From a virus (taxonomy: Duplodnaviria; Caudoviricetes): a DNA stretch of 64,000 bases. How positions within the stretch are numbered: the first letter of the stretch is position 1; every line of letters starts with the position of its first letter. Of this stretch, positions 4,995 through 10,073 are shown piece after piece. The translations under genes were made by a program, and so were the position numbers. Under the pieces are notes generated by a model. That model made no database searches, was not told the origin of the DNA, and saw only the letters and a list, made by a program, of their open reading frames with translations. The stretch lies in the IMG/VR virus record IMGVR_UViG_2863371048_000001. One strand, given 5' to 3'.

Positions 4995-6077
4995 GTGGCC
5001 GAGCTGCATATCTCTGAACTGCTAGATCTCGAATACCTGGAAGCCGCGGTCGAGGGCGGGTTCGTGCGGGTGCAGCAGCACCCCACCGAGCCGCTGTTCA
5101 TCTACAACTACACGGAGAAGACCCAGTACGAGGACGAGTGGAATGGAGCCACCCTCGCCTGCCGCGGCCTGATCACGGACGCGGGCGGGTGGGTCAAGGC
5201 CCGACCGTTCCGCAAGTTCTTCAACTACGGCGACCCGATGGTGGGCGAGCTGGACGCGTCGGCGAAGGCCGTCGTGGTCGACAAGATGGACGGCTCGCTC
5301 GGCATCCTGTACCCGGCCGCTGGCGGGTTCGTTATCGCCACCCGCGGCTCGTTCACGAGCGACCAGGCCCAACACGCCACCGACGTTCTCCAGCGGCGCT
5401 ACAACGACTTCCTGCCGCCCGAGGGGGTCACGGTCCTGTTCGAGATCGTCTACCCCGCTAACCGGATCGTGTGTGACTACGGAGGCGCGGACGACCTGTT
5501 TCTCCTCGGCGGGGTGGACATCGCGACCGGACAGGTTCTCGGGCCGGATGAGATCCGGGGATGGGCTGGGCCGGCGGCGAAGGTGTTCAACGTGCCGACG
5601 CTGGCGGATGCGTTGGCGATGCCGCCCCGTTCGGGCGCTGAGGGGCTGGTCGTCCGGCTGGTCGAGTCCGGGCAGATGGTGAAGCTGAAGCAGACGGATT
5701 ATGTCGCCCTCCACAAGATCATCACTGGGTTGAATGCCCGCGGCGTCTGGGAACTCCTCGGTGAAGGCAAGACCGTCGCTGACATCTGCGAGCCCCTCCC
5801 GGACGAGTTCCACGCATGGGTGAAGAACCTCGCCGGAGACCTGCAGCGGGAAGCCCACGAGTTGCTCTACGACACCGAGCGCTACCACGAGAAGATCCTC
5901 ACCCGCATGCCAGAGGGGTGGACGCGCAAGGACTACGCGCTCGAAGCCTCCACGTCTACGCTCCGCGGCTGGCTGTTCATGCTGCTGGACGAGCGGGACC
6001 CGCGCCCGCACATCTGGAAGGCACTCCGCCCGGCCGGCGACATGCGTCCCGTCCAGTTCTCGGAGGACGCCGCGTGA
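4995..6077 (+). CDS. T4 Rnl1-family RNA ligase
   Basis: IYNYT..TQY...W...CRGLI; KFFNYG; motif I KMDGSLG; LFEIVYP; EGLVV; KLK. Confidence 0.85.
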   Translation: MAELHISELLDLEYLEAAVEGGFVRVQQHPTEPLFIYNYTEKTQYEDEWNGATLACRGLITDAGGWVKARPFRKFFNYGDPMVGELDASAKAVVVDKMDGSLGILYPAAGGFVIATRGSFTSDQAQHATDVLQRRYNDFLPPEGVTVLFEIVYPANRIVCDYGGADDLFLLGGVDIATGQVLGPDEIRGWAGPAAKVFNVPTLADALAMPPRSGAEGLVVRLVESGQMVKLKQTDYVALHKIITGLNARGVWELLGEGKTVADICEPLPDEFHAWVKNLAGDLQREAHELLYDTERYHEKILTRMPEGWTRKDYALEASTSTLRGWLFMLLDERDPRPHIWKALRPAGDMRPVQFSEDAA

Positions 6078-8033: not shown

Positions 8034-9080
8034 ATGAGCCCCCGCATCGGCAGTCTCTGCACCGGCTACGGCGGACTCGACCTGGCCGTGATGGACGTCC
8101 TCGGAGGGGCCATGGCCTGGCACTGCCAGTACGACCCCGACGACAAGCACCAGTACGCGGCACGGATCCTCGCCCACCACTGGCCGGACGTGCCGAATCG
8201 CGGAGACATCACCGCCGTCGACTGGTCCGCAGTTGAGCCGGTGGACATTCTGACCGCCGGGTTCCCGTGCCAGGACCTCAGCTATGCCGGCCGCGGCGCC
8301 GGGATCCAGGAAGGGAATCGCAGTGGACTTTGGTATGCCATCGAGAGCGCAGTGCGCGCTCTACGACCTGGACTCGTCGTCCTGGAGAACGTGGCCGCCA
8401 TCGTTGCTCGACGACCTGGACTTGACGTCGTTCTCGCCGGTCTTGCCGACCTCGGGTTCGATGCGGAATGGACGGGTGTTCGAGCATCCGACGTCGGTGC
8501 CACCCACCAGCGGAACCGGTGGTTCCTCCTCGCCTGGCCTGCCGGCACTGCTGCCTACGCCGCGGACCTCGGACACGAACGGGGCCGGCGCGCACGGGAC
8601 GGGCGGTCCGGACCTGCGGACCGTCGTCTCGCTCCTGCCGACGCCGACCTCGACGAACGCGCACGGGAATCAGCGCAACAACCGAGGCGAGTTGTTGTTG
8701 CCCGGAGTGGTGGCAGCGCTCCTGTCGACCCCGCGGGCGAGCGACACGGGAACCCCGGGCCGACGAGCGAGCGAGGGGTTCCGGCCGCCGCTCTCGCAGG
8801 TGATCCTGCCGATCGCGAATGGGGCGCCTACGGTCCCGCCATCGCCCGTTGGGAGCACGTCCTCGGACGACCTGCCCCTGGGCCAGTTGACGATCGAGGA
8901 CGCCTTGCGCCTGTCTTCGTCGAGTGGCTGATGGGCCTGCCCGCTGGCCACGTCACCGAAGTGCCTGGCCTGCCGCGCAACGCCCAGCTGAAGGCTCTCG
9001 GCAACGGCGTGGTCCCCAAGCAGGCGGTCTACGCGCTGCGTCTGCTGCTGGCCCGCCTCGACTTGGAGGTGGCCGCGTGA
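8034..9080 (+). CDS. DNA cytosine-5 methyltransferase
   Basis: motif I SLCTGYGGL, IV AGFPCQDLS, VI ENV, VIII QRNRWF, IX-like VEWLMGLP, X LGNGVVP. Confidence 0.9.
   Translation: MSPRIGSLCTGYGGLDLAVMDVLGGAMAWHCQYDPDDKHQYAARILAHHWPDVPNRGDITAVDWSAVEPVDILTAGFPCQDLSYAGRGAGIQEGNRSGLWYAIESAVRALRPGLVVLENVAAIVARRPGLDVVLAGLADLGFDAEWTGVRASDVGATHQRNRWFLLAWPAGTAAYAADLGHERGRRARDGRSGPADRRLAPADADLDERARESAQQPRRVVVARSGGSAPVDPAGERHGNPGPTSERGVPAAALAGDPADREWGAYGPAIARWEHVLGRPAPGPVDDRGRLAPVFVEWLMGLPAGHVTEVPGLPRNAQLKALGNGVVPKQAVYALRLLLARLDLEVAA
8323..8931 (+). CDS. overprinted alternative-frame ORF inside the methyltransferase (LLPTP-repeat protein; candidate second subunit)
   Basis: 648-nt open alternative frame from 8284; SD-like AGGAAGGGA 6 nt before GTG 8323; LLPTP, LLPTP and LLSTP repeats. 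Confidence 0.55.
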   Translation: MDFGMPSRAQCALYDLDSSSWRTWPPSLLDDLDLTSFSPVLPTSGSMRNGRVFEHPTSVPPTSGTGGSSSPGLPALLPTPRTSDTNGAGAHGTGGPDLRTVVSLLPTPTSTNAHGNQRNNRGELLLPGVVAALLSTPRASDTGTPGRRASEGFRPPLSQVILPIANGAPTVPPSPVGSTSSDDLPLGQLTIEDALRLSSSSG

Positions 9081-9406
9081 CCCTCCTGTACTGCTGCCCC
9101 TCCGCCGACGTCGAGGGCGAGGGAGCCGAGCACTCCGCGACCTGCCCCGAGCGGCGTGCGGCTGAGATCACCGCCGAGAGGGCATCCGTGACTGAGCCCG
9201 CCGTTCGCCGCGCCCAGGTGTGGGCCGGCCGAGCCGAGTCATACCGCCGGTTCCTCGTCACGACCGTCGCTGACGGCAAGGTCCGCGGCATGTCGTACCT
9301 GGAGAACGACAGCGCCACGTACACCAAAACGCACCGCCTGCCCGAGTTCCTCGCCGCGTACGTGCTGCTGGAGGACGTGCCCGCCCACTGGGAGGTGACC
9401 CAGTGA
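9077..9406 (+). CDS. phage hypothetical protein
   Basis: GTGA overlap, GGAGG RBS. Confidence 0.55.
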   Translation: MTLLYCCPSADVEGEGAEHSATCPERRAAEITAERASVTEPAVRRAQVWAGRAESYRRFLVTTVADGKVRGMSYLENDSATYTKTHRLPEFLAAYVLLEDVPAHWEVTQ

Positions 9407-9654
9407 GCGCCGAGACCATCGCCCCTCACGCCGACTGCGCCGAGGTTCGCCGCCTCGTCGCGGTCGAGTTCGCCGCCCACAAAGAGCAGCTCCTGCAGCG
9501 GTTCGCCCAGGACGTGGAACGGACTCTCATGGCGATGCGACCCACCGTCCACGACGGAGAGACATGGGTGGCCGCGGCCACATTCGAGGCGTCGGCTCGG
9601 GTCGCGCTGAGGCTGGCCGGCCTGCCCGCAGACCTCAAGGAGGCCAGCCAATGA
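9403..9654 (+). CDS. phage hypothetical protein
   Basis: coupling overlaps. Confidence 0.6.
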   Translation: MSAETIAPHADCAEVRRLVAVEFAAHKEQLLQRFAQDVERTLMAMRPTVHDGETWVAAATFEASARVALRLAGLPADLKEASQ

Positions 9655-10073
9655 ACGCCCCTTACCCGACGACGACCCTGCCCAAGCCGTGCGAGCAGGA
9701 CCCGGAGAGCTGGTACGCGCCCAACGTCACTCGGGAACGCGCGCGAGCCATGTGCAGCGGCTGCCCCGTCCTGGGGGCGTGCGCCGAGTACGGCATCGCC
9801 CGCGAACGGTACGGCGTATGGGGAGGCCTCACGGAGCGGGCCCGTGAGCGCGCCCGCGCCAACAAGGGACTGACGCTGCCGCTTCACCCCCGGCCACAAA
9901 ACCAGCCGAAAGACGCGCGCCTCGCCCGCGACCTGGAACTGCTGCACGACTCCGAGGAGCTGCTCGGCCGAGGGGTGGGGTTCGAAGCGGTGGCGCAACG
10001 GCTCGGCTGCAGCCGCCACGGCCTGACGTCGGCTCGGACCCGCGCCCGTAAGCACCTGGCGGAGGCGTCATGA
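9651..10073 (+). CDS. WhiB-family transcription factor with C-terminal HTH-like extension
   Basis: C-EQDPESW...C-x2-C-PV-x3-C...GVWGGLTERAR. Confidence 0.9.
   Translation: MNAPYPTTTLPKPCEQDPESWYAPNVTRERARAMCSGCPVLGACAEYGIARERYGVWGGLTERARERARANKGLTLPLHPRPQNQPKDARLARDLELLHDSEELLGRGVGFEAVAQRLGCSRHGLTSARTRARKHLAEAS

Follow-up and report, generated by a model that had tools for sequence, protein, structure and literature searches.

A probable two-chain C5 cytosine methyltransferase of a prophage, with recognition-type modules encoded in a nested +1 reading frame

The IMG/VR virus record IMGVR_UViG_2863371048_000001 (Duplodnaviria; Caudoviricetes) is a prophage, of which we analysed a stretch of 64,000 nucleotides, hereafter called the window. 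It carries a gene for a C5 cytosine methyltransferase (alpha, read in frame 0), inside which a second open reading frame (ORF), hereafter called beta, is found in the +1 frame (see Table 1 for coordinates). We consider it probable that the two genes specify a two-polypeptide enzyme, in which alpha supplies the catalytic half, a junk linker and motifs IX-X, and beta supplies in trans a small N-terminal domain, called aN, and an array of recognition modules. The sequence comparisons described below indicate that both frames are under selection and where along the gene each of them is. From them we infer the separate initiation of beta, the binding of the two chains to each other and the recognition role of the modules.

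In the proposed model, alpha would be composed of the catalytic half (motifs I-VIII), a meaningless linker of ~90 residues and a C half (WGxY..RWE, motifs IX and X). Translation of beta would begin inside alpha in the +1 frame, with GTG 8323 as the most likely start, and yield the small folded aN domain, a short linker and three LLPTP modules, the latter occupying the place of the target-recognition domain of single-chain relatives. Docking of beta on alpha in trans via aN would complete the DNA-recognition lobe. The ancestral form would have consisted of two genes, with motifs I-VIII in alpha, and aN, the modules and motifs IX-X in a beta gene starting inside alpha in the +1 frame. In high-GC lineages, the C half would then have come into the alpha frame. 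Such a move would account for the state of the window, where beta is fully nested and devoid of motifs IX-X.

The alpha chain alone harbours the C5 methyltransferase motifs I, IV (PCQ), VI (ENV) and VIII (QxRxR), and motifs IX and X are present downstream in the same chain, as evidenced by the frame-0 reading and by matches to phrog_1008 and phrog_363. The Pfam signature PF00145 matches residues 5-168 only (E = 2.5e-28), so that the C-terminal half is outside the match. Both ends of the protein are covered by PHROG methyltransferase families (phrog_363 and phrog_116, both 'DNA methyltransferase', E about 1e-58). Between QRNRWF of motif VIII and WGAYGPAIARWE, frame 0 reads as the R/A/G/D-rich filler that a preliminary description of this DNA had noticed between motifs VIII and IX. 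No in-frame target-recognition domain was found between these motifs in alpha, the middle of the gene being selected in the +1 frame.

The open stretch of the +1 frame spans 8254 to 8931; the 648-nt alternative frame mentioned in the preliminary description indeed lies wholly within the methyltransferase gene. The three LL(P/S)TP units reported there were found as LLPTPRTSD at 8548, LLPTPTSTN at 8632 and LLSTPRASD at 8719. They are preceded by the motif set that characterizes aN in the beta family (YD.S.SW[KR]T or IATWN; WPTSG.MR.G..Y/F), and the segment SSWRT...F...LPTSGSMRNG, for which a resemblance to M.EcoHK31I beta had been suggested, turned out to be part of this conserved, separately selected N-terminal domain. 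The phrog_1008 profile ('DNA methyltransferase') matches beta over its positions 71-214 (E = 4.5e-15), and alpha residues 233-342 in frame 0 match positions 202-321 of the same profile, which indicates that the two parts share one frame in phrog_1008 members. The TGA stop of beta arises from the CTG ATG codons of EWLMG in alpha; in homologues, the position of the beta stop varies between -131 and +154 nt relative to the start of the C half.

In order to determine how the frames are used in the family, we collected 160 loci encoding the frame-0 protein, 80 in genomes of many actinobacterial genera and 80 in viral contigs, of which 154 are non-identical, and used tblastn to locate three parts in each locus (catalytic half, units, C half). 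These three parts follow the frame order 0/+1/0, as in the window, in 104 of the 154 loci (class C). In 24 others (class B), both the units and the C half are in the +1 frame. For class-C loci, we computed the ratios of non-synonymous to synonymous substitutions (dN/dS) from Nei-Gojobori counts pooled over ungapped BLAST segments. The frame-0 ratio is 0.34 in the early catalytic half and 0.36 in the last 140 nt of that half, reaches 2.42 in the middle (module array), and is 0.28 and 0.22 in the early and late C half, respectively. The corresponding +1 ratios are 1.21, 1.00, 0.23, 1.52 and 1.52. The switch of selection between frames is sharp and takes place at the W codon of AWP (position 8535 of the window, at 30-nt resolution). 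The +1 ratio in the middle indicates purifying selection on that frame across the modules, in line with the earlier suggestion that the alternative frame is a gene of its own.

Frame 0 is nevertheless kept open across the modules. The class-C middle regions contain no frame-0 stop in 13,170 codons (104 loci), versus 147.8 expected from shuffling of the +1 codons. With a set of 30 representatives at <70% identity, 0 stops were observed versus 41.9 expected (summed log10 P = -19.7). In class B, where frame 0 is dispensable after motif VIII, 70 stops were observed versus 76.8 expected. The absence of stops even though the residues are unconstrained argues that read-through of frame 0 is selected and that the residues read are not. 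A likely reason is that the C half has no start of its own and is reached only by read-through.

Upstream of the modules, we performed a per-column codon test with 84 representatives (<80% identity), using codon choice in residues 1-90 as the background. Strong deviations are confined to frame-0 residues 110-151, with none in residues 60-109 or 152-167. L110 and R111 are encoded by CTA and CGA, rare in frame 0, which yield Y-D in the +1 frame, and further fixed rare frame-0 codons are GCA for A129, GTT or GTA for V133 and GCG for A144. G141 is encoded by GGG in 81 of the 84 representatives, yielding the G of TSG in +1, and residue 149 by CTA, GTA or GTT, yielding Y or F. Frame-0 synonymous divergence (pS) is also 2-3 fold lower in the aN stretch. 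Judging from codon usage, the overlap upstream of the modules is truly dual-coded, its synonymous frame-0 sites being fixed on rare codons that spell aN residues. Two other candidate signals were set aside, as nearly all loci intended as controls also carry +1-coded parts. For this reason, a dip in frame-0 G+C content at third codon positions and a GAT codon at Asp143 (which gives ATG in +1) are present in all classes, and they were rejected as class-specific evidence; the lack of +1 stops past residue 123 carries no information either and was dropped.

A profile of aN and the first unit, searched against 1.8 billion representatives, yielded 15,138 clusters with E <= 0.001, of which 8,088 have E <= 1e-10. 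The majority of the top matches start at residue 2-4 of the protein, indicating that the N-terminus of aN is conserved. In an AlphaFold2 model of a short class-B beta (locus L248, 202 residues), the homologous aN forms a small beta-sheet domain, with predicted local distance difference test (pLDDT) values of 79-94. No weighty structural match was obtained with this model as a whole, aN alone not having been searched; the best Foldseek E value was 1.3, and the best VIA-align Z score, on the helical C part, was 3.0. One of the single-frame loci, L129, is devoid of the aN codon signature. As single-chain forms have no functional need for aN, this loss fits a docking role of the domain.

We also analysed a set of 79 further viral loci of 40-58% GC (hereafter mid-GC loci). 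In every scorable one, aN is found in the +1 frame over the catalytic half. Frame 0 stops 1-55 nt after motif VIII, and the C half is in +1 in most of these loci (class B), so that aN, the modules and motifs IX-X then form one ORF. In a separate contig of 53% GC (L196), the catalytic ORF ends 6 codons past motif VIII and overlaps the +1 ORF by about 300 nt; 13 frame-0 stops are found ahead of the C half, making it a rare case of the 0/+1/0 layout with stops in frame 0.

The starts of the mid-GC betas are bounded by stops. In 12 of the 79 loci, a GTG preceded by GAAGGA is present at frame-0 codons RS|G (aGTGga), which is the same column as GTG 8323 of the window, and most of these 12, among those listed, have a +1 stop 15 nt upstream of it. 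Many other mid-GC betas begin with V/M-x-K-x-I-A-x-W-N. In class C, a GTG is found at residue 97, i.e., the column of GTG 8323, in 27 of the 104 loci, 24 of them with a good Shine-Dalgarno (SD) sequence, and an ATG or GTG is present in 67 of the 104 at the column of window residue 128. The SD-like sequence previously noted 6 nt before GTG 8323 is AGGAAGGGA, at 8308-8316, and its predicted duplex with the 3' end of the 16S rRNA (-10.0 kcal/mol) is the strongest among nine candidate starts. GTG 8323 is therefore, on the basis of duplex energy and of the mid-GC relatives, the most likely start of beta in the window.

A search with the +1 protein returned 643 homologues of similar length, nearly all of them without a Pfam domain, the best being P0002 (E = 4.5e-56). 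They are of several kinds. P0002 and P0005 resemble the +1 ORF of the window end to end, P0034 and P0047 harbour the units and motifs IX-X in one frame, and P0072 is a full single chain that runs from motif VIII through LLPTP units to motif IX without a change of frame. Module types recur in reshuffled order among the homologues. The contigs that bear P0002 and P0060 show frame-0 filler and units in +1, as does Streptomyces phage Darolandstone, in which gp38 (L001:1408-3102), annotated as a DNA methylase of 565 residues, contains upwards of 150 filler residues, read out of frame across five +1 modules. Darolandstone gene 38 also contains an additional insertion between motifs IV and VI.

Truly single-frame loci are restricted to L002, L102 and L129 among the 154. 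At the junction between the catalytic half and the modules, the rare Pro codon CCT provides the CTG (Leu) of the first LP motif; the single-frame loci L002 and L102 have CCG at this position. Most of the 17 loci classified as 'other' have a +1-coded middle with different types of units, such as FRTPLASD...RGTIALSHQ. A few additional loci are mixed: in L054/L108, L131, L055, L161, L072 and L079, the first module past motif VIII is read in +1 and soon runs into a stop, and the subsequent ones share frame 0 with the C half. L055 and L161 have homologous modules placed in different frames. Finally, in L162 and P0233, aN and the modules share their frame with motifs I-IV or I-VI, and a different frame encodes motifs VII-VIII and the C half; these are either a further frame variant or broken copies.

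A number of observations weigh against the two-chain model. Taken alone, the window gene is statistically indistinguishable from chance. It is open for 226 codons in +1; in ten canonical C5 methyltransferase genes from the same bacterial family, the longest such runs have a median length of 100 codons and reach 212 at most. The probability that the middle of the window gene lacks a frame-0 stop is ~0.67. The significance of the arrangement thus rests on the family-level comparisons. There, the dN/dS estimates pool non-independent pairs from ungapped BLAST segments, yet the contrast between frames is large and consistent. We looked for a single conserved start with an SD sequence in high-GC loci and did not find one, as several positions come into play (residues 97, 119, 125, 128 and 143), and starts with SD-like sequences are equally common in the few control loci and in class C, where the SD sequences are no stronger than in those controls. 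AlphaFold2 modelling of the single-chain P0072 from a composite alignment gave a confident prediction for the catalytic and C halves and a disordered module array (pLDDT 30-45), which makes the model uninformative on how the modules sit. No match of the modules to known recognition domains was obtained by comparing the beta profile with PDB sequences or by searching the modules against Pfam, and an NCBIfam search with several betas gave no match.

Disordered modules that match no known recognition domain, along with an aN without structural relatives among solved structures (the whole L248 beta model being the query), would suit a beta that is translated but is not a methyltransferase subunit, for instance a regulator or another phage function overprinted on a variable region. 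We find this doubtful, although it is the least improbable of the alternatives. The single-frame relatives hold the same modules covalently between motif VIII and motif IX, and aN, the modules and motifs IX-X are one ORF in class B and in most mid-GC relatives.

There is a small chance that the window copy is a decaying prophage gene, with the layout inherited and the function lost. The prophage location and the weak statistics at the level of the window are compatible with decay, and orphan phage methylases are often dispensable (PMC11855218). Against it, all catalytic motifs are kept, the alpha and +1 ORFs are both intact, and both the rare-codon signature and the SD-GTG start are retained in the window.

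The sharp change of the selected frame at both junctions might also be explained by recoding, with ribosomes shifting +1 at the AWP/LPTP junction and -1 before WGAY to produce one canonical chain; single-chain relatives with that order of parts do exist (P0072, L102, L129). We regard recoding by two frameshifts as unlikely and assign it a slight probability. By eye, neither GCC TGG CCT GCC nor the stretch ahead of WGAY contains an apparent slippery site, be it in the window or among the class-C loci shown, and recoding would leave unexplained the stop-free frame 0, the selected and folded aN upstream of the supposed shift site, and the separate, stop-bounded beta starts of low-GC relatives. 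A point in favour of recoding comes from L196: 13 codons ahead of WGKY, at L196:3394-3400, the frame of the modules (+1) contains the heptamer A AAA AAC, a slippery sequence of the classical -1 type. It may serve for frameshifting, be a tract prone to slippage, or reflect a recent indel within the run of A. The junctions in the window showed neither a slippery nor a repeat tract, which does not favour the frameshift-switchable specificity region that the preliminary description had put forward as an option. Its other proposal, a two-subunit methyltransferase with a nested recognition module, fits all the comparative evidence, namely the selected +1 frame, the open frame 0 and the mid-GC starts, and is the reading we retain.

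The last alternative, a chance open frame of GC-rich DNA with motifs that merely shadow conserved frame-0 residues, can draw on the +1 open runs of up to 212 codons in control genes and on the fact that part of aN mirrors such residues (ENV giving RT(W/S), and LGFDAEW giving SGSMRNG), but we give it hardly any weight, as it is already contradicted by the +1 dN/dS of 0.23 in the modules, the frame-0 synonymous sites fixed on rare codons, the overlap being kept in genomes of 40-58% GC and the confident AlphaFold2 fold of aN.

Tandem short recognition modules located between motifs VIII and IX, whose number and order vary among relatives, are known from the multispecific C5 methyltransferases of Bacillus phages, in which they are in frame within one chain; the parallel with the window modules is one of arrangement. 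Most characterized C5 enzymes are monomeric, with M.AquI and M.EcoHK31I named as exceptions (PMC3404938). The latter two act with two chains each, and monomeric C5 enzymes, once split into fragments, can reassemble (PMC3404938, PMC2836561). In M.EcoHK31I, the beta polypeptide is nested in another frame, carries motif IX and needs its N-terminus for association (PMC2836561), and alpha comprises motifs I-VIII, motif X and the recognition domain (PMC2836561, PMC3404938). The analogy with M.EcoHK31I drawn in the preliminary description holds for the genetic layout, a beta gene wholly inside the alpha gene in another frame. It fails for the way the enzyme is split, since in the window motif IX stays with alpha, and the recognition-type modules are on beta together with an extra N-terminal domain. 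Both M.EcoHK31I chains are required for methylation; in our system, we infer the requirement for two chains.

M.AquI, with motifs I-VIII in alpha and the distal variable region and motifs IX-X in beta, is split after motif VIII (PMC3404938), as is the present family. Its division is shared by the class-B relatives (24 loci and most mid-GC loci), in which beta overlaps alpha. The window differs from it in that the C half is in the alpha frame and beta is nested and lacks motifs IX-X. The dual-coding overlap of 250-300 nt with a folded aN is a feature of the family that is not described for M.AquI in the literature cited.

Hidden out-of-frame HNH endonucleases have been reported in actinophage methylase genes (ShiLan domain), as selfish homing insertions of patchy distribution (PMC11855218). 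As in the window, a second ORF lies in another frame inside an actinophage methylase gene, and the host frame, devoid of stops, gives a harmless loop. The difference is that the inner gene of our family probably encodes a part of the enzyme and is near-universal in the subfamily. Homing endonucleases are also linked to the present methyltransferase family: aN of P0251 is fused to an N-terminal part that is LAGLIDADG-like, the catalytic half of P0220 is interrupted by an HNH-like insertion, comparable to the hidden HNH of PMC11855218, and in annotated Gordonia phages (records H35-H37) an HNH or LAGLIDADG gene adjoins the methylase gene. Full-text literature searches on LLPTP and on split or overlapping actinophage methylases returned no account of the nested +1 arrangement.

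Beyond the window, we lean towards the view that two overlapping genes encode the enzymes of a very large C5 methyltransferase family of actinobacteria and actinophages. The recognition subunit would start within the catalytic gene in the +1 frame, share ~40 dual-coded codons with motifs VI-VII and, in high-GC hosts, be fully nested, leaving the middle of the enzyme open by selection but meaningless. The aN and first-module profile collects thousands of clusters at 50% identity. If this view is correct, few long same-strand overlapping gene pairs of prokaryotes would be as widespread as these, and the split, overlapping design would be the normal form of a large phage-borne subfamily and no curiosity. 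Thousands of database entries would be wrong in the same manner, with alpha labelled as a single enzyme with a junk middle, as in Darolandstone gp38, and beta as a 'hypothetical protein'. The family would also offer a clean natural case of dual coding, in which stretches with both frames constrained, with one frame constrained and the other only open, and with single coding are found side by side. It would provide a modular, exchangeable specificity subunit for cytosine methylation, and such a detachable subunit could account for rapid changes of methylation targets in phage-host conflicts.

Table 1. Features of the methyltransferase locus in the window (position 1 is the first nucleotide of the window)
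Feature	Position	Strand	Basis
Alpha ORF of 348 aa for a C5 cytosine methyltransferase, in frame 0 throughout	8034..9080	+	ORF list; PF00145; phrog_363, phrog_116
Catalytic half of alpha, motifs I-VIII (GYGGLD, GFPCQDLS, ENV, QRNRWF...AWP)	8034..8540	+	frame-0 dN/dS 0.34-0.36
Frame-0 filler of alpha, ~90 R/A/G/D-rich residues, out-of-frame reading of the module array	8541..8819	+	frame-0 dN/dS 2.42; stops excluded
C-terminal half of alpha (WGAYGPAIARWE; motif IX FVEWLMGLPAGH; motif X GNGVVP)	8820..9077	+	phrog_1008 positions 202-321; frame-0 dN/dS 0.22-0.28
Beta ORF, +1 frame, longest form 215 aa from ATG, 202 aa from GTG 8323	8284..8931	+	phrog_1008; 643 homologues
Probable translation start of beta (AGGAAGGGA at 8308-8316, 6-nt spacer, GTG 8323)	8308..8325	+	duplex energy; mid-GC relatives
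Dual-coding stretch, putative N-terminal domain aN of beta (LYDLDSSSWRTW...FSPVLPTSGSMRNGRVF) over alpha motifs VI-VII	8359..8486	+	rare frame-0 codons; lowered frame-0 pS; aN profile
Junction GCC TGG CCT GCC, selected frame 0 to +1	8535..8546	+	30-nt selection scan
Three LLPTP-type modules of beta, presumed target-recognition array	8548-8631, 8632-8718, 8719-8811	+	+1 dN/dS 0.23
Tail of beta and TGA stop, +1 shadow of the alpha C half, without selection of its own	8812..8931	+	+1 dN/dS 1.52

The methyltransferase gene is single-copy in the 9.0-Mb host genome. Its neighbours, which identify the surrounding DNA as a prophage, include genes for an RNA-ligase-like protein, WhiB, a replication initiator, a DnaB-like helicase, a terminase, a portal protein and a major head protein. 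The first of these, an ORF at 4995-6077 upstream in the early region, has its PHROG match, at E = 6.9e-73, in phrog_562 ('RNA ligase and tail fiber protein attachment catalyst'). The ORF for the WhiB-like regulator (9564-10073) lies just 3' of the methyltransferase gene and overlaps the end of the ORF at 9403-9654 in a different frame. Elsewhere in the host genome, outside of the window, a frame of 750 residues (G000:C1:2242682-2244871) harbours two full-length PF00145 matches head to tail, and its sequence suggests that it may be a fused double C5 methyltransferase.
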